Source of the DNA: Planctomycetota bacterium
GTDB taxonomy: Bacteria; Planctomycetota; UBA11346
Reading direction: 5' to 3'
DNA length: 64,000 bases
Assembly: GCA_038231435.1 (NCBI GenBank)
Contig: JBBRLJ010000028.1
Location: forward strand, 1 to 64,000
This document shows positions 22,443 through 53,944 of the stretch, piece after piece. Below the pieces are notes generated by a model. That model did not search any database, was not told the DNA's origin, and saw only the letters and a program-made list of their open reading frames with translations. Numbering within the stretch: position 1 is the first letter of the stretch; each line of letters starts with the position of its first letter. Both the position numbers and the translations under genes were made by a program.

Positions 22443-23489
22443 CTAACCGACCGCCGCTTCCCCATCTGTCGGATGCACTCGTGAGCGGTCAACGATCCAT
22501 TTCACCCCGCGCCGCACCGCTTCCTTCGCTCGCGCCAGGGCACAGCCGATCGCCGACCCTCCGAAGCGGCCACCCATCGACATCGCGTCCCTCCATCGCC
22601 CGAGATCGAGTTCCAGGCGGGCAAGGATCGGCGACAGGTACGTCGGGATCGCTCCTCGTTTCCCGATCCGCACGATCCGCCCCGTCTGGTCGACCAATTC
22701 CAGGTAGTCGTCGGTCGAGAGTGGGCACGGGCACAGCCGGCTCGTCTTGTCGGACCAGGGCGTGCACGCCTCGAGCGGAGCCAGCCATGATTGGACCAGC
22801 GGTGGATCTGCTGGCGTCGGGATCGCTCCGCTATCGACGAGACGCGCGCCGGCCTTCGCCATCTGACGCTCCTCGATGCGTCGCTGAATGCTCGTCAACT
22901 CGCTCGATTCGGGACGATCGGCTTGCCGCGCTCGGATCAGATTGAGATCCACGTATGCCATGCAGGCGATCACCGCCGCCTGATCGAGCAGCGACACCGA
23001 CGTGAAGCGCCCTTCCCAGAAATGGCCGGTGCAACGGTCCTCGCGATTCGCCCGCCGGGCGATGCGCTCCTTCATCACCTTCATGAACCACGACAGACTC
23101 GACAGGCGGGCCCGATGCTCAGAGACCCATTCCGCATCCGCCGCCTTGCCGTCGAGCCAGCGCAGATCCGGTGGCTTCGGATTCCCGTCGTCGTCCTTCA
23201 GCGGGAACATGACCGCCCAGCGCTCGGCCACCTCGCGACCGGACCACCTCGCGGCGCGGTCGGGATGGACCTTCATCACCAGGTGGAAGTGATTCGACAT
23301 CACCGCGTAGGCGAAGATATCGACGGCGAATACCGTCGCCTGCTCGCGAACGGCTGTTTCGATCCAATCTCGACGATGCGCCCATTGATCACTGCAGAGG
23401 AAGGAGCGACGGACGCAGCGGCTGATGACGTGATAGCAGCCAGGTTGCGTCTGGTCGATCAGATGCGAGCGGGCAGTCGTCATGAGCAC
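22443..23489 (-). CDS. HUH Y1 transposase, REP-associated tyrosine transposase (RAYT)/IS200-like
   Basis: YHVISRCVRR.FL, YAVMSNHFHL (HUH), GHFWEGRF.S, YVDLN. Confidence 0.9.
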   Translation of the reverse strand: MLMTTARSHLIDQTQPGCYHVISRCVRRSFLCSDQWAHRRDWIETAVREQATVFAVDIFAYAVMSNHFHLVMKVHPDRAARWSGREVAERWAVMFPLKDDDGNPKPPDLRWLDGKAADAEWVSEHRARLSSLSWFMKVMKERIARRANREDRCTGHFWEGRFTSVSLLDQAAVIACMAYVDLNLIRARQADRPESSELTSIQRRIEERQMAKAGARLVDSGAIPTPADPPLVQSWLAPLEACTPWSDKTSRLCPCPLSTDDYLELVDQTGRIVRIGKRGAIPTYLSPILARLELDLGRWRDAMSMGGRFGGSAIGCALARAKEAVRRGVKWIVDRSRVHPTDGEAAVG

Positions 23490-23543
23490 GGGATACGGGA
23501 TGGATTATGAGATTGGCGTGAGAACACATGCCTGTCCTAGGAT

Positions 23544-36438: not shown

Positions 36439-36500
36439 GAGACGGAAGAGGGAAGAGGATATAGAGGAGGCGCGGTTTCTGTGGGGCTCTCCTCGAATTC

Positions 36501-36571
36501 GTGATCGTAGCGAACGTGCTCGCAGTCAAGGCCGATCGGCGGGGCGCCGATCGCCGCGGGGGAACCGCGGT
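36501..36571 (+). repeat. 5' half copy of the structured element
   Basis: GATCGTAGCGAACGT..TCAAGG, GATCGGC-GGGGC-GCCGATC, CCGCGG-GGGAA-CCGCGG; 3' stem arm missing. Confidence 0.7.
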
Positions 36572-36592
36572 TCGCAGCTCGAATCTCTGCAT
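36572..36592 (-). pseudogene. N-terminal remnant (MQRFEL) of a four-helix-bundle gene
   Basis: AAGGAG RBS then ATGCAGAGATTCGA, resembling ATGAGCAGATTCGA at 44981; similarity stops at the half element. Confidence 0.5.
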
Positions 36593-36615
36593 GTCGTTCT
36601 CCTTGCGCCCCACCG

Positions 36616-36703
36616 CGCGATCGTCCTCGGGGTCAAGGCTGGCCGCCCCGGCCACCGCGGCCCCCGCGGCCCGGCCTTGATGCCGAGGACGATCGCGACA
36701 ATC
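36616..36703 (-). ncRNA. Conserved multibranch structured element, copy 3
   Basis: 24-bp closing stem (2 mismatches) enclosing CCGCGG and GGCC-GGGGC-GGCC hairpins. Confidence 0.65.
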
Positions 36704-36932
36704 ACGCCACCGGGGAGAACGCCCACAAAACACATGCCGTCCAGCTGTCCTCGAGCCCTCGAGCTTGCTCACCTTCGAGCCTTCGAGACTTCACCTTCGA
36801 CGTCCGGCGTCTGCCCCCCCCCGCTCTCGCCTACCGACGACAACCAACAACGGACATTTCATCCCAGTCCAAAAAACAAACACGCGCGAGGCAGAGCCCC
36901 GCGCGTGTCCACCGTTCACTTCGACGCGTCGA

Positions 36933-42704: not shown

Positions 42705-43169
42705 ATGCAGTTCGACATCAGCCGCGACTTCCTCGATGGCATCATGCTCCAGCAACCCGTCGGCCGCGACGGCAAGGGCGAGATCCGCGCCGCCGGCCAG
42801 CTTCATTTCCTGCCCTCGAGCCCCGACGGCACCATGCACACCGCGGTGGTCGGCTTCGCCCTGATGCTCGGCGAGACCGACCAGCCTTTCGCGCGCGGCG
42901 GCTGGCGCTTCCTGTTCACCACCGACTCCGCCTTCGATCCGACCAAGGACCCCGAGAACAGCTTCTTCAACAACCTGCTGGTGCTGGGCTCGGGCAAGAT
43001 CATGGCCCAGCTCAACAACCTGTGCATGCACGCCAACCTACCGCTCATCCCCTTCGAGCCCGGCCGCATGGTCATGCAGAAGGCGCCGGCGCCCGGCAAT
43101 GGCAACGGCAACGGCAACGTGCCACCGAACGTCACCGGAAATCCCCCGGCCCAGGCCAAGAAGGCATGA
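42705..43169 (+). CDS. Hypothetical protein with GN-repeat tail
   Basis: AGGAG RBS, host-like codon usage. Confidence 0.7.
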   Translation: MQFDISRDFLDGIMLQQPVGRDGKGEIRAAGQLHFLPSSPDGTMHTAVVGFALMLGETDQPFARGGWRFLFTTDSAFDPTKDPENSFFNNLLVLGSGKIMAQLNNLCMHANLPLIPFEPGRMVMQKAPAPGNGNGNGNVPPNVTGNPPAQAKKA

Positions 43170-43200
43170 GCGGAACCACCGTCCCGGCATCGCGGTGACC

Positions 43201-44787
43201 GTGGATTCCACAGCGATCGCCTACCATCACGCGACCAAGTACGCTCCCGAGACCATCGGCAACCATCCGGGGCTCGATTGGGGCCGGCAGCCGGTGCCCT
43301 ACAAGGCCTACGACAGCCTCACGCCGATCGAACTCGCCTCGTACCTGCCCTTCGATCCGAATCCGTTCACCGGCAAGGCCCGCGCCGATGAGGGCGAGCC
43401 GCGCGATGGCGCGGTCGAACTGAACACCGTGAGCCGCTGGCTGTTCGCCAGCTACGGCATCACCGGCGTCATCCCCAACCAGCCGCGGCCCACCTACCTG
43501 CGCGCCGCGCCATCGGCCGGCGGACTGTATCCGGCCGAGGCCTACCTGGTGGTGCGCGACTGCGCGGGCTGCGAACCTGGCCTCTATGGCTACGACCCGC
43601 GCCGCCACCGCCTGGTGCCGCTGTGGGACGATCCCGACGTCGCCAAGCATCTCGCCGCAGCCTGCTTCGACGATGCGGCGATCGCCGCGGCCGGCGTGGC
43701 GCTGGTTGTCACCGGCGTCTTCGAGCGCAGCCGCTGGCGCTACGGCGAGCGCGCGTACCGGCGCATCCTGCTCGACAGCGGCCACCTGCTCGGCAACGCC
43801 TGCCTGATGGCGCCGGCGCTCGGGCTGCGCGCGAGCCTCACCGCCGCCTTCTGCGACGAGCGCCTCGACGAGCTGCTGCGCCTCGATCCGGATCAGGAAG
43901 GCGCGCTGGCGGTGGTCGGATTGAACGTGCGCGGCCCGGCCGAGCGCCCGCATTGGAGCGCGCTGCCGAGCGCGCGCGTCGCTCCGCCGGACCTCAGCGC
44001 GGCAACCGACGGGAACAGCGACGCGCCGCTCCTGCACGCCCTGCACGCCGCAGGCCGCCTGCCCTCTGAGCGCCCCCGCCTGATCCCGCGTGGCGAGGAG
44101 CTCTCCGAAGGACTCGAAGCCCGTTACGGTTGGACCGGTGGCACGACTATCGCCCCGGATTCCAGCGGTCAGGGCGGCGGCGTGCCCGGCGTGGCCTGGG
44201 ATGGCGGTGCGCTCGGCCGCGATCCGTTCCACGCCATCCTCCACCGCCGCAGCACGCGCCGCTTCCAGCGCGGCACCATGCGCCGCGAGCAGCTCGCGCG
44301 CGTGCTCGCCGCCGCGTACGCGCCCGAGACCCACGGACTCGGCGAACAACCCGCGATCGACCGCAACCACCTCATGACCTTCGTCGCCGTCGTCGATGTC
44401 GAAGGCCTCGACGCCGGCGTCTATTACCTCGCTCCCCACGGCCTCGAGCTGCGCCTGGTGCGCCCCGGCTGCTCGCGCGAGGCGCTGCAGTTCCTCTGCC
44501 TGGGCCAGGAACTCGGCGGCGACGCGACTGCGGTGGTCTTCCACACCGCCGATCTCGAGGAGACGGTGAAGCACCTCGGTGATCGCGCGTACCGGTATCT
44601 GCATCTCGATGCGGGCATGATCGGCGAACGGCTGGACCTCGCGGCCTTGGCCGAGGGATGCGGGGCGAGCGGGATCGGGGGATTCTTCGATGATCAGGTG
44701 ACGGATCTGCTGGGGATACCGAGGGAGCAGGCGGTGGTGTATGTCACGACGTTGGGGTTGCCGCAGGAGGCGGGGGGAGAGGAGTAG
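43201..44787 (+). CDS. SagB/ThcOx-family tandem nitroreductase-domain protein
   Basis: YHHATK, LRAAPSAGGLYPAE.Y, WRYGERAYR..LLDSGH, RRSTRRF, YRYLHLDAG, GIGGFFDD; start uncertain. Confidence 0.9.
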   Translation: MDSTAIAYHHATKYAPETIGNHPGLDWGRQPVPYKAYDSLTPIELASYLPFDPNPFTGKARADEGEPRDGAVELNTVSRWLFASYGITGVIPNQPRPTYLRAAPSAGGLYPAEAYLVVRDCAGCEPGLYGYDPRRHRLVPLWDDPDVAKHLAAACFDDAAIAAAGVALVVTGVFERSRWRYGERAYRRILLDSGHLLGNACLMAPALGLRASLTAAFCDERLDELLRLDPDQEGALAVVGLNVRGPAERPHWSALPSARVAPPDLSAATDGNSDAPLLHALHAAGRLPSERPRLIPRGEELSEGLEARYGWTGGTTIAPDSSGQGGGVPGVAWDGGALGRDPFHAILHRRSTRRFQRGTMRREQLARVLAAAYAPETHGLGEQPAIDRNHLMTFVAVVDVEGLDAGVYYLAPHGLELRLVRPGCSREALQFLCLGQELGGDATAVVFHTADLEETVKHLGDRAYRYLHLDAGMIGERLDLAALAEGCGASGIGGFFDDQVTDLLGIPREQAVVYVTTLGLPQEAGGEE

Positions 44788-44852
44788 GGAGGGGATAAGG
44801 GGAAGGAGCGGAGAGCGGAGAGCGGAGTTTACTACCGTTTCTCGCTTCACTC

Positions 44853-44956
44853 GATTGTCGCGATCGTCCAGGCTGGCAAGGTCGGCGGCCGGGGCGGCCT
44901 TGCCGCGGAGGAACCGCGGTGCCGGGGCGGCAACCTTGACAGCCTGGACGATCGCG
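44853..44956 (+). ncRNA. Conserved multibranch structured element, copy 1
   Basis: Stem 44859-44881/44934-44956 (22/23 complementary) enclosing three small hairpins; lies just before the AAGGAG RBS. Confidence 0.7.
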
Positions 44957-44980
44957 TGCCGGGGGTGAAGGAGAAACATC

Positions 44981-45334
44981 ATGAGCAGATTCGAACGACT
45001 TCTCATCTGGCAGCGGGCGCGCGAGGTGCGGATCCTGTTCCGCGACTGCACCGCCACCATGCGCGACGCAGTTCTCAAGGATCAGATCCGCCGCGCAGCG
45101 CTGTCGGTCATGGCGAACATCGCCGAAGGCAGCGAGCGCGCCACGAACGCCGATTTTCGCCGATTCCTGGCAATGGCGCACGGTTCGTGCGGCGAACTAC
45201 GCAGCCACCTGGTCGTAGCGCTGGATGACCACCTGGTCGATGACGCTTTCTATCTCCACCTCAACACCAAGCTCATCGAGCTCGGCAAGATGATCGCCGG
45301 CTTCATGAAGGCGCTCGCGCGAGGCGGCGGGTGA
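44981..45334 (+). CDS. Four helix bundle protein (23S rRNA IVS / bAvd-like family)
   Basis: FE.L.IWQ.A, L.DQIRRAA.SV.ANIAEG.ER, F.RFL..A.GS..E. Confidence 0.93.
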   Translation: MSRFERLLIWQRAREVRILFRDCTATMRDAVLKDQIRRAALSVMANIAEGSERATNADFRRFLAMAHGSCGELRSHLVVALDDHLVDDAFYLHLNTKLIELGKMIAGFMKALARGGG

Positions 45335-45396
45335 CCGCCGCCTCCTGCACTCCGCTGTCTCTCTCTTTCTGCTTTGAGCTGTCCGCTCCCCCTCTC

Positions 45397-45744
45397 TCAC
45401 CCACTCAAGCGGATGATGAACGCGCTGAGCATGCGCCGCACATAGTCGATGCGCTCGTCGAGCTGATCGAAAACGGACGTTTCCACATATCCCGCATTGC
45501 ATGCGATCGCCAGCTGCGCCTGCAGCTCGCCAGCCGAGCCACGGGCCATGGTCAAGAATCGTCGCAGCTCGGTGTCGCTCCTGTGCCCGGCGCCTTCCGC
45601 GATATTCGACGCGATCGATACCGCCGCGCGCCGCATCTGATCGCGCAGCCCGCACGCATCGCGCATCGATTCGGTGAGTTCGCGCACGGTGCGGACTACT
45701 GCGCGCGCTTCGTGCCACACTCTGAGTTCGTGGATCTTCGTCAT
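45397..45744 (-). CDS. Four helix bundle protein (second, convergent)
   Basis: L.VW..A, GLRDQMRRAAVSIASNIAEG, RFL.MARGS..EL. Confidence 0.93.
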   Translation of the reverse strand: MTKIHELRVWHEARAVVRTVRELTESMRDACGLRDQMRRAAVSIASNIAEGAGHRSDTELRRFLTMARGSAGELQAQLAIACNAGYVETSVFDQLDERIDYVRRMLSAFIIRLSG

Positions 45745-45767
45745 CTTCTGTCTCCTTGCGCACAACC

Positions 45768-45856
45768 CGCGATGGGCATCGGGGTCAAGGCTGGCCGCCC
45801 CGGCCACCGCGGTTCCTCCGCGGCATGGCCTTGACGCCGATGACGATCGCGACAAT
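45768..45856 (-). ncRNA. Conserved multibranch structured element, copy 2
   Basis: 24-bp stem (3 mismatches) enclosing CCGCGG-AGGAA-CCGCGG and GGCC-GGGGC-GGCC; lies upstream of the AAGGAG RBS. Confidence 0.7.
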
Positions 45857-45923
45857 GGGAGCTAGGAGACTGAGAATTGGGATAATCCGGAGATGGATGG
45901 ATCCGCATGCCGATCTACCGCGA

Positions 45924-46005
45924 TCCGACATCCGGGATCCGACGTCCGCTATCCGCCCTCCGCTGTCCGCTGTCCGCTGACAACTGACAACCGACAGCGG
46001 ACAGC
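45924..46005. repeat. 7-mer tandem array TCCGNNN x8, followed by partly inverted ACAACTG/ACAGCGG units
   Basis: Read directly from the sequence. Confidence 0.85.
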
Positions 46006-46008
46006 ATC

Positions 46009-46080
46009 GAAGGCGAGAAGGTAAGAAGGTAAGAAGGTAAGAAGGTAAGAAGGTAAGAAGGTAAGAAGGCGCGAAGGCCT
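46009..46080. repeat. 8-mer tandem array GAAGGTAA x6 perfect plus 3 degenerate units
   Basis: Perfect copies at 46017-46064. Confidence 0.95.
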
Positions 46081-46151
46081 GCCGGACTCCTACCGGGCGC
46101 TTGCCGCCCTCCCCTCTTCCCCCCGCCCCCTCTCCGCTACCCTCCCCTCCC

Positions 46152-46916
46152 ATGCTCTGCTACTCCTGGAACGTCAACGGCATCCGCTCGGTCGCGCGCA
46201 AGAATCTGCTGCCGTGGGTGGTCCTCCCCCGCGCCGATGTCATCTGCCTGCAAGAGACCAAGGCCCAGCAGCACATGCTGGAATCCTCGCTCGGCGAGCC
46301 CGATGGGTGGCATTCGCATTGGCATTCGGCGGTGAAACCCGGCTATTCCAGCGTGGCGATCATTTCGCGCGAGAAGCCCGACGAGGTCGTCAACGGCATC
46401 GGCGACGACACCTACGATTCGGAAGGGCGCGTGATCGCGGCGCGCTTCGGTACGCTGGTGGTCATCAGCGCCTATTTCCCGAACAGCCGCGACGGCGGCG
46501 CGCGCATCGACTACAAGCTTGGCTTTTGCGCGCAGATGGAGGGCGTCCTGCAGCATTGGCGCAATCGCGGCTGCGAGGTCGTCCTGCAGGGCGACTACAA
46601 CATCGCCCACAACCCGATCGATCTCGCGCGCCCGAAGGAGAACGAGAAGAACGCCGGCTACCTGCCGCAGGAGCGCGCGTGGCTGACGCGCTTCCTCGCG
46701 CTCGGCTACCGCGATGTCTTCCGCGAACGCAATCCCGACTTGGCGGGCGCCTATACATGGTGGACCAACTGGGCCGGCGCGCGGCAGCGCAACGTGGGGT
46801 GGCGCATCGATTACTCGACCGTGTCCCCAGGCCTCGCAGATCGCGTGAAGGACGTGCGGCACTACCCTGAAATCCTGGGCAGCGACCATTGCCCGGTCGC
46901 CATCGACGTGACCTGA
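46152..46916 (+). CDS. xth: Exodeoxyribonuclease III / AP endonuclease
   Basis: SWNVNGIR, CLQETK, EGRV, YFPN, GDYNIAH, YTWW, GWRIDY, GSDHCPV. Confidence 0.95.
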   Translation: MLCYSWNVNGIRSVARKNLLPWVVLPRADVICLQETKAQQHMLESSLGEPDGWHSHWHSAVKPGYSSVAIISREKPDEVVNGIGDDTYDSEGRVIAARFGTLVVISAYFPNSRDGGARIDYKLGFCAQMEGVLQHWRNRGCEVVLQGDYNIAHNPIDLARPKENEKNAGYLPQERAWLTRFLALGYRDVFRERNPDLAGAYTWWTNWAGARQRNVGWRIDYSTVSPGLADRVKDVRHYPEILGSDHCPVAIDVT

Positions 46917-46980
46917 CCCGAGGCAAAACCACAGAGCTTTCGGGCCTTCCAGCTTCTGGCCTTCGCGCCTCCCCGTGGTC

Positions 46981-49900
46981 CTACTCGCGCTCCCTGATCC
47001 TCGCCTCGATGAATAACATGATCACGTCGTCGCGGTTGAGATCGAGGCACGACCGGTAGTCAGCCAGGGCCTCCTCGGTCTCGCCACGGCAGTCGTGCTT
47101 GAGCGCGCGCGCGAATGGCAGCATTTGGCTCGCGATCACCGAGTACGGCTGGGCGAGGAAGCCCTTTTCATCGATGTCGCCGGCGATGTACGAGGCGAGG
47201 TACCACAGACGCTGACCGTAGACGTAGCGTTGGTGATCGATCACGGGACGCAGGCCGTTGGTGGCGTCGACGGTGCGCCCGAACAGCACCGGCATCATCA
47301 CCGGCAGCAGGTAATGGCTGAACATGGTCATGTCGTCGGTGTGGTCGGGCGGGATCTGGGCGAGGTGCTTGACCAGATCGGTGCCGGCGACCTCGTCGCC
47401 GTCGCGGATCAGGCACATGGCAACGCGATGGAGATCAGCCGGATCGAGCGGGCGGCGCGACAGGAGCTGGCGGTAGCGCCCCAAGGCGATCAGGGCGTCG
47501 CCCGGCTGGTCCGGATACTCCTCGAGCAGTTCCTGCCAGCGTTTCATCGCCTTCAAGGCCCGGTAGCGAGGAGCCAGCTGCTGCGGAGAGCGGTCGCCGT
47601 CATGCGGATTGGGGTACATCTTCAGCAGATCCTCGACGCGCCCGCAGTCGATCAGCGTGTCGGGGAGGCGGATGTCGGCCGGGAACTCCTTGATCAGCCG
47701 ATCGCAGTCCTTCTTCGCAATCAGGGTTTCGACGAGCTGCACCGGGTCGAGCCTCGGCCGCAGTTCGGCCCTGCCGCTCTCCTTGATCACCGCGTGCACC
47801 ACCGACTGCACGTACGGATGCTTGTCGATCACCTCCTGGAAGCGGCCCATGGCATAGAGGGCCGAGGCCGAAAAGAAGTCGTCGTAGCGGTACCATTCGT
47901 AGATGAGATCGGAGCGCCCGAGCATCCTCAGGACCGGGATGCATGCGGTAATGAACGGATTCAGGCGCAGCGAGACACCATAGGCGTCCGACAGCCGATG
48001 GAGCTCCCGCTGGACCACCGAGATGCGTTCGACGATGTCATCGGGAAAGGTGCGCGAGGTGAAATCCATCAGCGGCTTTGGCACCAGCACCTGCAGGTGC
48101 CGGCGCGCATAGTCGACCATGGTGCTGCGCAGGATGGGATGACCCTTGAAACGGGCCAGGTCCTCGCGCAGGCGCGAGGCCTCCGCCTCGTCGCCCTGGT
48201 CGGCGGCGGCGACGCTGCGCGCGTGCAAGGACAGCGGGATCGTCTCGTCGTCGGGGAATTGCCGCTCGAATTCCTTGAGCTCGGCGACTCCGGCCTGGGT
48301 ATCGCCCAGGCGCAACGCGCACACCGCGGCCTGGTAGCGCGCGCCGCCTTCGAGATCGGTTCCCGGATAGGCCTTGGCGATCTCGAGGAACTGCGCGCGC
48401 GCGTCTCCGAGCTTGCCGACCTGCATCAGCTTGTTGCCCACCGCCAGCGGTGAGATGCGTTGCGCGAGCGGCTGGATGAGCAGATGCAGGTTGCGGGCGG
48501 CGACGCAACTGCCGCCCGCATAGGTGTCGAGCCCGAAGCGCGTGGCGAGCGGCATCTCGTCGGATGCGAGAACCGGATAATCGATCAGCGTGCGGCCATC
48601 CATGATCAGCCGCAGGTGCTGGTGATTGCGCTCGAGCGTGAACTGGTAGTAGCGGCCAAGGGCGATGGGATGGCGCATCGCGCCCTCGGCGAGCAGGTTG
48701 TCATAGCCGCCGTGGGTGAGCAGCACGGTGGTGCTGCGGCCGCCACCGACGTGGAAGGTGAAGCCGGCTTCGCGATTCTCGCCGATGAAGCAGTTGAGGT
48801 CGCGGCCTTCGCGCACCGACATGTACTCCCATTCGACGCGGAAGTCGCCCGCAACCGGCTCGCGCCACACCAGGTCGACGTAGTCGGTGGTGCTGGTGAG
48901 GCGGACCGCCCCATCGACCACCGCCACGCGGGGATCGTCGTTGGGAATCTGCGCGAATGGCATCGGACCATCCGCCTTCTTGGCGAGGCGCGACCAGCGC
49001 AGATCGATCGCGGCCGGCGTCCCGGTGAAATCCTCGGCCGCGACCTCGACCCACAGCGCGCGTTCGCGTTCGCGTTCGCGCCACATCTCCCCGAACGCGA
49101 GCAACGCCGCGACAAGCGCAGCCGCGGTGGCCAGGAAGGCGCGCGGATTCGCGCGGTACCAGCGCAAGAGCATCTTCAGCGGGGGGTCGCGGTAGACGCT
49201 CACGCGCCTGCCGGCCTGGAAGGCGCGCAGATCCCCGAGGAGCTCCTCCACCGACAGGTAGCGGTTGTTCGGCGTGGCCGCCAACGCCTTGAGCGCGATG
49301 CGCAGGATCGCGGCCGGCACCGCGCGCCGCTCCTCTGCGGTCGGCAGGTCGATCTCGCCCGCTCGCTTCTTGATCCAGAAAGGCTCGGATTGGTCATGCC
49401 AGGTCGGCGGGCGCAGGAACAACGCGTGGAAGAGCGATGCGCCGACGCAGTAGACATCGCTGCTGGTGGTCGAGCCTTCGAGACGCGCCTGCTCCGGGCT
49501 CATGTACAGTGGTGTGCCGTAGAGCCGACGCCGGCTGTCGCCGATGCGCGTGGCGCTGCCCCAGTCCACCAGCAGCACCTCGCCGTAGGCACCGAGCATG
49601 ATGTTGTCGGGCTTCACGTCCTGATGGATCACGCCCTTGTGGTGAGCGAAGGCCAGGGCCTGGCAGACCGCGATGAAGACGTTGACGATGCCATTGGCCT
49701 CGGCCAGCTGCTCGGGCCGGTCGCCTTTCACCGCGCGCTCGATGCCCGCGCCCAGCGAGCTGCCCTCGATCTTCTTCATGCTGAAGTACGGGCGGCCCTG
49801 GTCGGTGACGTCGATGTCGTGGACCGGCAGCACGTTCGGGTGGGTCAGGGTGGCGGTGATGCGCGCTTCGTCGATGAAGTTGTCGATGTCCTCGTCGGCA

Positions 49901-50157
49901 TCGTGATCCTCGCCGAGCACCTTGATCGCCACTTCGCGATCGAGGCTGCGATCGGCGGCGATGTATACCTGGCCAGAAGCGCCGACACCGGCGACCCGGC
50001 GTATCTCGAAACGGTCGGCGGCCTCGGCCCGGCCGAGCCGCGAGCGCAGATCGGTTCCCGACAGATGCGGCGGGGCACCTTCCACCACGCGCGCGCGCGG
50101 ACGTGGTGCGTCGAGATCGACCGTGCGGCGCAGCTCGTCGGGATCCTGCGTGCTCAT
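46981..50157 (-). CDS. Membrane Ser/Thr kinase with beta-sandwich and TPR-like C-terminal region
   Basis: VAIK, HQDVKPDN, DWG, GTPLYMSPEQ; hydrophobic segment; helical repeats. Confidence 0.9.
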   Translation of the reverse strand: MSTQDPDELRRTVDLDAPRPRARVVEGAPPHLSGTDLRSRLGRAEAADRFEIRRVAGVGASGQVYIAADRSLDREVAIKVLGEDHDADEDIDNFIDEARITATLTHPNVLPVHDIDVTDQGRPYFSMKKIEGSSLGAGIERAVKGDRPEQLAEANGIVNVFIAVCQALAFAHHKGVIHQDVKPDNIMLGAYGEVLLVDWGSATRIGDSRRRLYGTPLYMSPEQARLEGSTTSSDVYCVGASLFHALFLRPPTWHDQSEPFWIKKRAGEIDLPTAEERRAVPAAILRIALKALAATPNNRYLSVEELLGDLRAFQAGRRVSVYRDPPLKMLLRWYRANPRAFLATAAALVAALLAFGEMWRERERERALWVEVAAEDFTGTPAAIDLRWSRLAKKADGPMPFAQIPNDDPRVAVVDGAVRLTSTTDYVDLVWREPVAGDFRVEWEYMSVREGRDLNCFIGENREAGFTFHVGGGRSTTVLLTHGGYDNLLAEGAMRHPIALGRYYQFTLERNHQHLRLIMDGRTLIDYPVLASDEMPLATRFGLDTYAGGSCVAARNLHLLIQPLAQRISPLAVGNKLMQVGKLGDARAQFLEIAKAYPGTDLEGGARYQAAVCALRLGDTQAGVAELKEFERQFPDDETIPLSLHARSVAAADQGDEAEASRLREDLARFKGHPILRSTMVDYARRHLQVLVPKPLMDFTSRTFPDDIVERISVVQRELHRLSDAYGVSLRLNPFITACIPVLRMLGRSDLIYEWYRYDDFFSASALYAMGRFQEVIDKHPYVQSVVHAVIKESGRAELRPRLDPVQLVETLIAKKDCDRLIKEFPADIRLPDTLIDCGRVEDLLKMYPNPHDGDRSPQQLAPRYRALKAMKRWQELLEEYPDQPGDALIALGRYRQLLSRRPLDPADLHRVAMCLIRDGDEVAGTDLVKHLAQIPPDHTDDMTMFSHYLLPVMMPVLFGRTVDATNGLRPVIDHQRYVYGQRLWYLASYIAGDIDEKGFLAQPYSVIASQMLPFARALKHDCRGETEEALADYRSCLDLNRDDVIMLFIEARIRERE

Positions 50158-53100
50158 GGCTGAATAGAAGCCGGCGCGAGCGCCGACAACCGCCACGCGA
50201 TGAATTCGTGGTATACGGCGGGGAAGCGCCCGCCCATGGACGCATTGGCGAGATCGTAGGCCGCTTTCGCCGCGGCGTCGTGGCCTAGGCAGTCCTCGCG
50301 CAGGGCGATGCCGAACTGGAGCAGCCAGCCCGTGTAATGCCGGCAGGGCTGGAGCGCGAACTGCCGTTCGTCGATGCGCCCCGTGACCAGCGCCGCGAGG
50401 TGCCAGACGCGCTGGTTGCACGACCAACGGTGGCGCTCGAGCACCGGCGCGAGCGCCTTGGCGGCTTCCGTGCCCGAGCGGCGCCCCAGCAGCATTGGCA
50501 TGAGCGGCTGGACCAGGAAATGCGGCATCCAATCGGTGGAATCGGCGTCCGGCTGGGCGTCCGCCAAGCGGGCGAGCAGGCCGCGGGCCTTGATCTCCTG
50601 GCCTTCGGCCAGCCACCTAAACGCGACCCGGTACATCGCGATCGCATCGCCGGGGACGCGGGCGACCAATTCGTCGTGGCGCCGCAGCCCGAGCATGGCG
50701 TCGATCTGGCAGCCGGCGTCGGGATACCGGTCGAGGATATCCTGGTAGGAGTGGCGCGCGGCGAGCACGCGGTAGCGCGGCGTCTGGAAGGCCTGGTTGC
50801 GCGTCGCGTCGTTCTCGGACTCGGCATGGCGCGCGAGGAACTCGTCGTATTTGCCCTCGGCCAGCAGCCGGTCATCGAGGTCGTAGTCCGGGAAGCGCGC
50901 ACGCAGCCTCGCCTGGTCCCCGAGCTCCACCAACGCGATGGGGATGCGCCAGCTGCCGTATGGATCGTCCGCCACCTCCTGGTATCGGCCCTGGAACAGC
51001 ATCGAATCCATACGCACGACCAGATCGTATGGAGCGCGCGCGATCGCCTCGTCGTATCGCCCCATCGCCATCAGTGCCCTGGCGCACACGCGATCGGAAT
51101 GGGGATAGTCGGCCAGCACCAGATCGGCGCGCCCGAGGCGGGTCAAGAGCGGCGCGGCCTTGTCCATGAACGGATCGTTGTGCAGCGGTATGCCGTAGGT
51201 GTCGGCCATGCGGCTCAGCTCGGCGTTGGTCGCGCTGATGCGTTCGATGGCGTCATCGGGGTAGTTGTGCCCGCCCACCTCGGTGGTTTCATGCCAGGCG
51301 ATCGACGGCAGACGGTCCGCCGCCATGTCGGTGAGCACCGCGTTGAGCACCGGGTGCCCCCGATACGTGCGCAACGCCGCGCGCAGCCGGTCGACGTCGG
51401 CGGCGGCGCCGGGTGGCGGCTCCTTCGACGAAGCCGCCGCGCGCGCGGCCAACAGGCGTTCATAGAGCGACACTGGGACCATTTCGTGTGCCGGGTGTTC
51501 CGCCTCGTATGCAAGCAACTGCGCCAGGCCCTGAGCCTTGTCGACCGAGCGCAGGGTGCTGAGCGCCCGCTCATAGCACGCCGACCCCGCCAGGACGGTT
51601 CCTGGGTACGAGCGCTCGATCTCGTGGTACTGCCGCACCGCTTCGTCGACCTTGCCGGCCTGGTACAGCCGGCGTCCCACCTCGAGCGGCGAGATGCGCT
51701 GCGGCAGCGGCCGATCGAAGACCCGCACATGCTCGATCGACTGGGCATTGCCCGCGTAGCAATCGAAGCCGAAGGTTGAGGTGGTCTCGGAATTGAACGC
51801 GTCGAAGTCCTGGTAGTCGAAGACCATCGCGCCGTCGATCGACATGCGCATGTGCCGACCGTCCTTCTCCATCACGTAATGGTACGGCTTGGCGATGACC
51901 AGCGGGTGGACGATGAAGCGCTGGTCCACGACCTTGAAGTACGCGCCCTTGGTCATCAGCGCGTAATGCGGATCGCCGTACGCGCCGACGTGGAAAGTGA
52001 AACCCTTCTCGCGGTCCGGTCCGATGAAGCAGTTCAGGTTCTGGTTGGCCCGCTCGCAGGTGTAATCCCATTCGACGCGGAAATCGCCATGCAGCTCCTC
52101 GCGCCATACCAGATCGACGTACTCGCGCTCGCTCGCCAGGTGCATGCGGCCGCCGGAGAGCGTCCAGCGCATTCCGGTCGACAGCGGAATCTCCGAGAAC
52201 GGCAGGCCGAAGGCGTCCGCGGATTTGGCCAGGCCGCGCCAGCGCGTCTCGAGTCCGGCCAGGGTGGCGTGCGCGAAATCCTCGTCTGCCACCGGCATCC
52301 AGCTCGAGCGCTCCTTGGACTTCTCCATCGCGAACACGCCGATCAGCGCGACGACCGCGCACGCACCCGCCGCCGCGATCCAGAACGGCTTGCGGTTGTG
52401 GCGATACCAGCGCGAGAGCAGCTGCCACGGCGAATCGCGATGCGCGCTGACCGCCAGCCCGGCCTGGAAAGCCTTCAAGTCGCGCAGCATCGCTTCGACG
52501 GACGAATATCGGGCAGACGGTTCCGGCACCATCGCCTTGAGCGCGATTCCCAGCAGCGGCGCCGGCACGCGCTTGCGCTCCTCCACGGTGGGCATGTCGA
52601 TCTCGCCACGGCGCTTGCGCGCCATCAACTCCTCGCCGCCATCCGCCCACGTTGGCAGGCGCCGCATCAGCGCGTGGAAGAGGCTCGCGCCGACGCAGTA
52701 CACGTCGCTCAGCGCGGACACGCCCTCGAGGCGCGCCTGCTCGGGACTCATGTACAGCGGCGTGCCGTAGAGCTTTGGCGGGGCTCCCTCGGTCGCACGG
52801 ATCGCGCTGCCCCAATCCACCAGCAGCACCTCGCCGAAATCGCCGAGCATGATGTTGTCCGGCTTCACATCCTGGTGCACGAAACCCCGGTGGTGCGCGT
52901 ACGACAACGCCTGGCAGACGCCGATGAAGACGCTGACCACCGCGTTCGGGGTCGCGAGCTGCTCGACCTGCTCGCCGAGCGAGTAGGCCTCGAGCGCGCG
53001 CCCGAGCGAGCGGCCCTCGATCTTCTTCATGCTGAAATACAGGCGGCCGTCGCGCGTGGCTTCGATGTCATAGACCGGAAGCACGTTCGGATGCTGGAGC

Positions 53101-53528
53101 GACGCGGTGATGCGCGCCTCGTCGATGAAGGACTCGACATTCTCGCGATCGCCTGGCCGCGACCGCTCGAGCAGTTTCACCGCCACCTCGCGCCCGAGAT
53201 TGCGGTCGATCATCGCGTAGACGCACGAGGTGCCGCCGACACCGGCGAGCCCGCGCAACTCGTAGCGCGCGCCGTCCACTCCGGCCCGCTGATGACCGAG
53301 ATCGCGCAGGCGCGAGTCGAGATCCTGGCCACCGAGGTCGGGCGGCGAGCTCACTCGATCCGGATCGAGCGCTGGTCGACCGGCCTCGCGGGTGACGCCC
53401 TGGTCGCGGACGGCGCGGGACGGGTCAAGCTGGAACGGCGGATCCGCTCGTCGCGTCGCGCCGCCGGCGCGCGGAGCGGCCTCAGGCGTGGCAGCAGGGG
53501 TGGCGGAGGTGGGCGGCTGCTCGGCCAT
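50154..53528 (-). CDS. Paralogous membrane Ser/Thr kinase
   Basis: Same motifs and architecture; 4-bp overlap with downstream paralog. Confidence 0.9.
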   Translation of the reverse strand: MAEQPPTSATPAATPEAAPRAGGATRRADPPFQLDPSRAVRDQGVTREAGRPALDPDRVSSPPDLGGQDLDSRLRDLGHQRAGVDGARYELRGLAGVGGTSCVYAMIDRNLGREVAVKLLERSRPGDRENVESFIDEARITASLQHPNVLPVYDIEATRDGRLYFSMKKIEGRSLGRALEAYSLGEQVEQLATPNAVVSVFIGVCQALSYAHHRGFVHQDVKPDNIMLGDFGEVLLVDWGSAIRATEGAPPKLYGTPLYMSPEQARLEGVSALSDVYCVGASLFHALMRRLPTWADGGEELMARKRRGEIDMPTVEERKRVPAPLLGIALKAMVPEPSARYSSVEAMLRDLKAFQAGLAVSAHRDSPWQLLSRWYRHNRKPFWIAAAGACAVVALIGVFAMEKSKERSSWMPVADEDFAHATLAGLETRWRGLAKSADAFGLPFSEIPLSTGMRWTLSGGRMHLASEREYVDLVWREELHGDFRVEWDYTCERANQNLNCFIGPDREKGFTFHVGAYGDPHYALMTKGAYFKVVDQRFIVHPLVIAKPYHYVMEKDGRHMRMSIDGAMVFDYQDFDAFNSETTSTFGFDCYAGNAQSIEHVRVFDRPLPQRISPLEVGRRLYQAGKVDEAVRQYHEIERSYPGTVLAGSACYERALSTLRSVDKAQGLAQLLAYEAEHPAHEMVPVSLYERLLAARAAASSKEPPPGAAADVDRLRAALRTYRGHPVLNAVLTDMAADRLPSIAWHETTEVGGHNYPDDAIERISATNAELSRMADTYGIPLHNDPFMDKAAPLLTRLGRADLVLADYPHSDRVCARALMAMGRYDEAIARAPYDLVVRMDSMLFQGRYQEVADDPYGSWRIPIALVELGDQARLRARFPDYDLDDRLLAEGKYDEFLARHAESENDATRNQAFQTPRYRVLAARHSYQDILDRYPDAGCQIDAMLGLRRHDELVARVPGDAIAMYRVAFRWLAEGQEIKARGLLARLADAQPDADSTDWMPHFLVQPLMPMLLGRRSGTEAAKALAPVLERHRWSCNQRVWHLAALVTGRIDERQFALQPCRHYTGWLLQFGIALREDCLGHDAAAKAAYDLANASMGGRFPAVYHEFIAWRLSALAPASIQP

Positions 53529-53944
53529 GGGATCCTGGAAGCGTCGGGAAGCACGCCGCGAGGAGGATACCGCATGCGCAGACGGAGTGATCAGCGGGAG
53601 CGGGGACGGCCTGGCGGGTAGCGCAGACACGGGCGGCCTGCGCGACTCACCGCCTCGGCGGAACAACGGGATGCACGCGGGAGCGCGGGACGAGCCGCTG
53701 GCGTCGCCCGCCTGCCCACCGCTCGATCGCACGGTGAGGTATGGAAGCGCTTCCAGGAGGCAGGTTCATCCTCGCGCTCCCCTCGTCGGAAGAGCCTCGA
53801 TGCACTGGGAACCCACCCACAGGGGGGCGTGGCGTGACGAAAAGTCGGCTAAAACGGGGCGAAAAAACCTCCCTCGGAAGGGCTAACGACCGTACCGCCT
53901 TGGCCCGCAGTAGGTAACACACCCGTCGAGAATGTCTAAATCTG

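Follow-up and report, generated by a model that had tools for sequence, protein, structure and literature searches.

Why should two small convergent genes, each headed by a long hairpin, sit between a sagB-like gene and xth in a planctomycetotal genome? The cassette that raises this question lies at 44788–46151 of the window, that is, of the whole 64,000-nt stretch of contig JBBRLJ010000028.1 (assembly GCA_038231435.1, Planctomycetota bacterium) analysed here. The assembly (G000, hereafter the source genome) has 5.2 Mb and 67% GC and is 88% complete. Judged from its sequence, the hairpin element is probably a single-stranded DNA (ssDNA) promoter of class 2, similar to ssp2, driving a gene for an Avd-fold protein that would be expressed neither from duplex DNA nor from read-through RNA. 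The evidence suggests a scattered chromosomal cassette that is active only in the single-stranded state of its DNA. What we observed directly are the hairpin with its conserved boxes, the presence of its motif ahead of leading-region genes, the insertion between host genes and selection on the protein.

Structure of the hairpins

The cassette carries two convergent four-helix-bundle genes, gene 1 (44981–45334, plus strand, 117 aa) and gene 2 (45397–45744, minus strand, 115 aa). Both products belong to PF05635/TIGR02436, with profile scores of 93.9 and 102 bits, far above the cut-off of 33.8. The predicted structure of the gene 2 protein (pLDDT 93.8) resembled Xcc0516 with a template modeling (TM) score of 0.90 and, with a TM of 0.80 at 13% identity, the Avd protein of diversity-generating retroelements (DGRs).

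Hairpin 1 (44838–44976) runs from an arm complementary to the Shine-Dalgarno sequence (anti-SD arm, 44838–44850) through a bubble, a spacer stem, the GGCAAGG/CCTTGAC core and apical hairpins to the Shine-Dalgarno sequence (SD, 44968–44973). Hairpin 2 (45750–45870) has its SD at 45752–45757, then the core and an anti-SD arm (45864–45870). An earlier note on this DNA, made from the letters alone, had described two real four-helix-bundle open reading frames (ORFs), each with a structured element and an AAGGAG behind it, flanked by 7/8-mer arrays, and all of this was confirmed. The element itself is as described, but it extends to the outer anti-SD/SD stem and measures 120–140 nt in total, not ~90–105 nt. 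The AGGAA and GGGGC apical loops are present as well; they are specific to this genome and replaced in relatives, and so are not conserved as had been thought.

Folding z-scores ranged from −4.2 to −10.2, and each of six strands was equalled by 0–1 of 200 shuffles. For the template strands of the cassette hairpins they were −9.8 and −6.8 (0/200 shuffles as good). In an alignment of 36 sequences 94.6% of the cells paired, and two-sided changes occurred in 9 of 17 pairs. None of 500 shuffles reached any of these measures and slid controls were 26–42% paired, although kinship by itself may let an alignment outdo its shuffles, and these same sequences had supplied the structure. This strong covariation bears out the earlier claim that pairing is kept while the stems differ. 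A covariance model run on the source genome recovered 22 of the known sites and no new ones. No known Rfam family matched the element at the gathering threshold, and an E-value search gave chance scores of the microRNA type alone.

Promoter geometry on the template strand

Read antisense, the upstream arm of the hairpin spells TTGAC(N), 14 nt and (T/G)ANNNT, a candidate −35 and −10. In hairpin 1 the putative −10, GACAAT, lies at 44854–44859 on the minus strand, its −11A being the first unpaired base of the folded minus strand, and the putative −35 at 44874–44879 (minus). The putative promoter of hairpin 2 (45831–45856, plus strand) consists of TTGACG (45831–45836), a 14-nt spacer and GACAAT (45851–45856), and would be used when the plus strand folds.

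On the antisense 5′ arm, TTGACN was followed at a distance of 14 nt by xAxxxT in 10/10 copies of the source genome and 24/27 non-redundant copies of the family, compared with 0/10 and 0/27 on the 3′ partner arm and 1/28 in unpaired chance hits. The search pattern had left out the −10 positions, near-duplicates were removed, and the spacer letters alongside vary freely; the copies are kin, so these counts overstate independence. Within the source genome the −35/−10 reading was found in all 18 gene-facing hairpin readings and in none of the 15 reverse ones. A relative with 42% GC had the −10 hexamers TAAGCT, TAAGAT, TAAACT and TAAGGT.

When the template strand of 37 copies was folded as DNA, position −12 had a mean pairing of 0.83 and position −11 one of 0.08; for sense folds the latter value was 0.35–0.45. 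Stem covariation runs through −12 and then stops, with 94.6% paired versus 49% for −11 to −7. A paired −12 next to an unpaired −11 is the fork junction recognized by sigma70-type polymerase, and the template fold, with −12 paired and −11A open, would present such a junction. The predicted +1 sits 1–8 nt before the GGA of the SD in 30/32 copies, so that the transcript would lack the anti-SD arm.

The boxes do share one strand and point away from the gene, as in an ordinary outward-facing promoter of double-stranded DNA, in which case the hairpin would serve another purpose. This is the least probable explanation we weighed: the spacer has only 14 bp, and a duplex promoter has no need for a complementary arm whose covariation is exact as far as −12 and ends there.

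The hairpin could also act as RNA, namely as a leader that hides the SD and is bound by the Avd-like protein or by RNase III to control translation. The sense RNA forms a very stable fold, which in most copies encloses the SD; SD and anti-SD arm covary, and one T.G pair is conserved on the sense strand. Avd belongs to a complex of reverse transcriptase (RT) and RNA according to PDB titles, and intervening sequence (IVS) RNAs are cleaved by RNase III (PMC4990558). Hiding of the SD is, however, equally expected for a promoter. Variable stem positions have no sense-strand G-U bias (G.T 9, A.C 11 in 37 copies), a rough ungapped count over the outer stem favors the antisense strand (A.C 36, G.T 19), and the same core stands before ArdC, DUF932, KlcA and RadC genes with no four-helix-bundle gene. 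We prefer the ssDNA promoter because the invariant unpaired letters fit a −10 only on the antisense strand, and consider an RNA leader unlikely. Of the possibilities named in the earlier note, the autoregulatory leader is thus the less well supported, and its alternative mention of ssDNA was on the right track.

Several observations weigh against the ssDNA promoter. At a stem position that hardly varies, 27/37 copies have T.G on the sense strand, a mismatch on the template strand, and hairpin 1 is more stable on the sense strand (−58.7 vs −54.6 kcal/mol). The spacer has 14 nt, compared with 17 in an ordinary promoter and 15 in ssp2 by our own sequence reading, not from published box positions; in window-type copies it is duplex (14/14), with no bulge to relieve its shortness. 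Window copies carry G at −12. The −35 of hairpin 1 is TTGCCA in the window; position 44876 is mostly T in contigs from four sequencing runs, giving TTGACA, and these contigs may stem from paralogous copies or other strains. Among the metagenome copies listed, the −10 pattern occurred at 14–16 nt in 37/68 (mode 15; control arm 3/66) and was missing in 31/68. Among the paired copies listed from a GTDB scan it was present in 10/21 versus 5/21 on the control arm, and in a mostly actinobacterial variant in 2/29. Other cassettes are flanked by housekeeping genes, e.g., mutS, valS, rnr, dxs and thiG, and the relaxases PF03432 and PF08751 (MOBP/MOBF) were not found in the 88%-complete source genome, so that no source of ssDNA emerged.

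The actinobacterial variant (loci L062, L064, L078, L094, L112 and others) has a reverse register, with TA 16 nt after TTGACN. It is usually without the −7T and often has no SD-led ORF behind it.

The same motif ahead of leading-region genes

A GTGCTCG-GTCAAGG...CCTTGAC hairpin precedes leading-region genes of plasmids and integrative and conjugative elements, namely DUF932, ArdC, KlcA and RadC. The conserved-core pattern scan was assessed on listed matches only, which are mixed with chance hits; among them were paired core copies in Proteobacteria, Acidobacteria, Phycisphaerae and Actinobacteria. A stricter pattern gave at least 123 metagenome loci with at least 120 distinct copies. Under our own start rule 58 of 120 copies had a downstream ORF, and the other 62 were not classified. 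By Pfam, 30 of the 58 listed ORFs were of leading-region types (DUF932 10, ArdC 8, KlcA/ArdB 6, RadC 4, ParB 1, methylase 1), 6 belonged to PF05635 (IVP), 6 fell elsewhere and 16 had no match. Genes for ArdC, KlcA, DUF932 proteins, ParB and methylases are of the kinds that occur in plasmid leading regions (F annotation; PMC11541004).

BLAST searches with two leading-region copies hit 245 and 289 plasmid records, 224 and 259 of them typed conjugative; these counts are not independent, as many are near-identical Salmonella plasmids. The window hairpin gave nothing meaningful in BLAST against plasmids. In NZ_CP044976 the motif precedes DUF932-ParB within an integrase-to-relaxase element, presumably Tn4371-like by its gene order. 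On viral contigs a loose pattern had 14 matches, mostly chance, one of them before a DUF932-like ORF, and the strict pattern had none.

The hairpins before klcA and ardA of F and pESBL are reported to be class-2 ssDNA promoters, with support from 5′ rapid amplification of cDNA ends (PMC12672017). By our own reading, the F klcA and pESBL klcA/ardA hairpins have the core GCAAGGG/CCCTTGC and the boxes TTGCAT-15-TAAGAT. Three candidates in Supplementary Table 2 of PMC11541004 also have 15-nt spacing by the same reading. A further hairpin before a DUF1281 gene of pESBL (L199, upstream of 3472) has TTGCAT-15-TAACGT on its template strand, an ssp2-like geometry.

Contrary to the earlier note, the structure is therefore not private to the four-helix-bundle protein, as it precedes unrelated conjugative leading-region genes in other phyla. 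The rest of the proposed module of a cognate RNA or ssDNA with an Avd-like protein stands: the linkage of element and gene, the inserted multi-copy unit with empty sites and the Avd-like fold.

The motif was also seen before sigma70-family genes in three unrelated records (L289, L318, L081), where a sigma factor is possibly expressed from ssDNA. At two metagenome loci (L298, L308) it lies ahead of ISL3 transposase ORFs.

Copies in the source genome and its relatives

The source genome has 17 four-helix-bundle genes and 23 element copies at E < 0.001. The element is directly ahead of the start in all 16 genes with upstream sequence, the 17th gene running off its contig, and in relatives 61/65 sampled elements with downstream room precede such a gene, confirming the suspected enrichment. 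Six own cassettes are two-gene convergent pairs, with a within-cassette identity below 68% in every pair; one relative (G061) has eight such pairs. Among 25 family genomes examined for both, the element is absent from the 10 that lack the gene, has at least 9 matches in each of the 8 with six or more genes, and matches in 2 of the 7 with one to three. PF05635 members outside this group had only short tandem arrays, among the matches listed. A covariance-model scan of the phylum was positive in 3/121 genomes (27 candidates scored per genome), and a family-type leader was found in named GTDB records titled Planctomycetota (L089, L140).

Seven copies are without a gene: two at contig ends, two in a collapsed pair, two with a lost gene and one hybrid. 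The collapsed pair is a second cassette at 36479–36727, in which both genes are deleted; a whole hairpin (TTGATG-14-GACAAT) with its SD and five codons is joined to a truncated hairpin (TTGACT-14-TACGAT) of the opposite orientation. The third 5′ arm of the earlier note, CTCGGCA, belongs to this pair; it is a real copy (36615–36703), with no gene behind it.

The hybrid element (contig C14, 82032–82149) joins the 5′ arms of two different copies, the second arm being inverted; a deletion of both genes between two core repeats would produce such a structure. At C25:46401–46427, beside thiG, the upstream arm alone remains, followed by 8-mer arrays. A four-helix-bundle copy at C47:9894–10241 is interrupted by a stop at codon 10, and of its deleted partner gene only the leader is left.

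Paralogues had a dN/dS of 0.10–0.39 at a dS of 0.45–0.93 in 22/22 compared pairs, which points to old copies under selection for the protein, with some pseudogenes. This purifying selection on the ORF, together with an SD at a fixed distance behind the predicted start, speaks against the view that the hairpin serves chiefly to prime synthesis (single-strand initiation) or to block replication, and not as a gene promoter. Gene-less copies do persist in the genome, and Frpo-type transcripts prime complementary-strand synthesis, which ssp2 stalls (10.64898/2026.01.09.698686). We regard such a main role as very unlikely; as a further role, it is compatible with the favored ssDNA promoter.

In a protein tree the leader-bearing genes clustered (7 changes vs 20 when shuffled, 0/500). 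The tree was quick and poorly resolved, with six rows mislabelled as leaderless, and does not establish a single origin.

In a genome of another family (G069), motif copies with 15-nt spacing to TAGCGT and TACCCT were seen (L400, L403). One of them has a divergent four-helix-bundle gene further downstream.

Insertion sites and mobility

The stop codon of the host SagB-like/nitroreductase gene (43099–44787, plus) forms the left edge of the insertion and the host xth (exonuclease III) gene (46152–46916, plus) the right edge. Among 19 sagB-like loci of relatives, xth adjoins in 5 and a four-helix-bundle gene in none. The two genes are coupled by an ATGA overlap in three relatives (G004, G052, G053) and are thus not chance neighbors, as the earlier note had it when calling them unrelated. 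The other two xth neighbors are separated from sagB by a ~140-nt spacer of inverted 7-mers and by a response-regulator gene. The cassette interrupts an ancestral sagB-xth junction, and the empty orthologous sites that the earlier note hoped for exist in relatives. At a second site, mutS/DUF374, the gap of G002 is almost empty and that of G001 contains an unrelated palindrome, a REP-like (repetitive extragenic palindrome) inverted repeat (L430).

A purine-rich left arm with a 7-mer array (GAGCGGA x3; 44765–44829, plus) is complementary to a pyrimidine-rich right arm (46104–46151, plus) that ends at the xth start. Between hairpin 2 and the right arm lie 7-mer arrays (TCCGCT-type, CTGACAA) and the 8-mer array AGAAGGTA x6.8 (45918–46069, plus). 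Pairing of the two arms across the cassette reached −97 kcal/mol, equalled by 1/300 shuffles, and brings the sagB stop close to the xth start, which has no SD. We infer that it may preserve translational coupling of sagB and xth. Downstream of xth, two tandem giant Ser/Thr kinase genes with tetratricopeptide repeats, ~1200 aa each, occupy 46981–53732 (minus).

Because the arrays at the ends of the copies vary, no target-site duplication was recognizable among the matches listed. In contigs of four DNA runs, the joints listed included none that excised the cassette or closed a circle, and contigs cannot show absence. An RT as mobilizer was rejected, as there were 0 PF00078 matches in G000, G002, G013 and G020, incomplete genomes with at least 9 elements each; RTs are present in 33/48 family genomes. 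A Y1 transposase was likewise rejected, its matches in 42/48 family genomes having no link to element presence. The source genome has one weak coupling-protein fragment at a contig end, as well as ComEC and DprA; among 14 control genomes these two have matches in 10 and 11, so their presence carries little weight.

A 353-aa open frame at 22446–23504 (minus) has a weak Y1_Tnp match and HUH motifs like those of REP-associated tyrosine transposases (RAYTs). It adjoins an integrase-like fragment and tRNA genes and is the sole Y1 candidate found in the genome.

Such an enzyme raises the possibility that the hairpins are ends or nick sites at which a trans-acting RAYT/IS200-like protein or a recombinase would act, moving the cassette in ssDNA form. 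Inverted copies do bracket the pairs, collapsed and hybrid copies exist (36.5 kb; C14), and the conserved mismatches and bulged base recall folded-DNA recombination sites. The cassette edges lie outside the hairpins, however, in the variable 7/8-mer arrays, and single-gene cassettes have just one hairpin. The Y1 matches are spread irrespective of the element, and the motif also occurs inside conjugative elements, ahead of genes. We find this explanation very unlikely.

Proposed mode of action and significance

Under the favored ssDNA promoter, a single-stranded template would fold so that the upstream arm provides a paired −35 (TTGAC/TTTAC) and a −10 paired at −12, with −11A opening a ready-made bubble. 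RNA polymerase would then transcribe the other arm into the SD and the gene. The transcript would begin just before the SD, without the anti-SD arm, and be translatable. In double-stranded DNA the boxes would point away from the gene, at a 14-bp spacing, and be silent; read-through RNA from the host would contain the anti-SD arm and not be translated. A convergent pair would offer one expressible gene from whichever strand is exposed. The ssDNA might come from DNA uptake or transfer, with ComEC and DprA present, and the Avd-fold protein might act on the incoming strand and aid establishment of the cassette.

The unit appears to be a dispersed, selfish-looking cassette built on an ssDNA promoter hairpin. 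More tentatively, it may represent an undescribed class of minimal selfish elements with no mobility enzyme of their own. These would be expressed only as ssDNA, from leading-region-type promoters on either strand, their Avd-fold protein helping establishment after transformation or chromosomal transfer, and the flanking arms and anti-SD stem would otherwise hide them from the host operon. We hold this wider reading to be possible, though doubtful.

In the literature found, ssDNA promoters are limited to plasmid leading regions and conjugative elements. The motif forms a widespread, alignable candidate family across several phyla and integrative elements, with candidates now on chromosomes before genes of PF05635, a large family of no known function. 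What appears to be new, by sequence comparison, is a motif common to four-helix-bundle genes and leading-region genes. We found no paper describing it or joining four-helix-bundle genes to ssDNA promoters, in a search that largely left subscription journals outside. If true, the proposal would explain why PF05635 genes look silent yet selected and would point to ssDNA entry or stress as the conditions under which the protein should be sought. It would also tie an Avd-fold protein to the step of DNA transfer at which host defences are countered or the DNA becomes established.

Comparison with known systems

The element belongs neither to the rRNA IVSs nor to the DGRs or the REP/RAYT units. With the ORF-bearing 23S rRNA IVS (S23p; Coxiella, PMC4990558) it shares the protein family, a selfish insertion and a long closing RNA stem, and the Coxiella IVS protein is reported to be apparently not made in ordinary growth. 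Unlike the IVS, the cassette is multi-copy, lies between protein genes and has promoter-like hairpins; the window contains no rRNA, only tRNAs. With DGRs it shares the Avd fold in the predicted structure of the gene 2 protein. In contrast to them, it has no PF00078 RT in the source genome or in three other element-rich genomes, and no template/variable repeat pair was among the repeats listed for 43500–47500, where no dedicated search was made. Like REP/RAYT and IS200/IS605 ends, the hairpins are multi-copy intergenic palindromes with small GC-rich tip hairpins, in a genome with a RAYT-like gene. They differ in being always gene-directed with an SD, with no linked transposase and with boundaries outside the hairpin; the Y1 ORF is 21 kb from the cassette and has no such hairpin beside it.

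Closer are the promoters that work from one strand. As in the class-1 promoters Frpo and ssi of F and ColIb-P9 (PMC9849209, PMC11541004), a stem-loop would rebuild −35 and −10 from a single strand; the cassette hairpins are without the AT-rich UP-element stem, differ in sequence and lie outside a leading region. The best likeness is to ssp2/ssp2a/2b of F and pESBL (PMC12672017; PMC13478746; 10.64898/2026.01.09.698686), which have a long GC-rich template-strand fold-back with an outer stem. There, too, a CAAGG/CCTTG core holds the −35, a short gap (15 nt in ssp2 by our reading) leads to a TAAGAT-type −10 at a bubble, and relatives of the motif precede the same antirestriction family. Unlike ssp2, the cassette hairpins have a spacer of 14 and a short branched tip, their predicted start abuts the SD, and there is no sequence homology beyond the core geometry. 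The cassettes are also chromosomal, among housekeeping genes, with no origin of transfer (oriT) or relaxase found, and use both strands in convergent pairs. We do not class the element as a leading-region promoter, because its own copies have housekeeping neighbors; sister copies elsewhere do lie in leading regions. Most likely it works like a class-2 ssDNA promoter.

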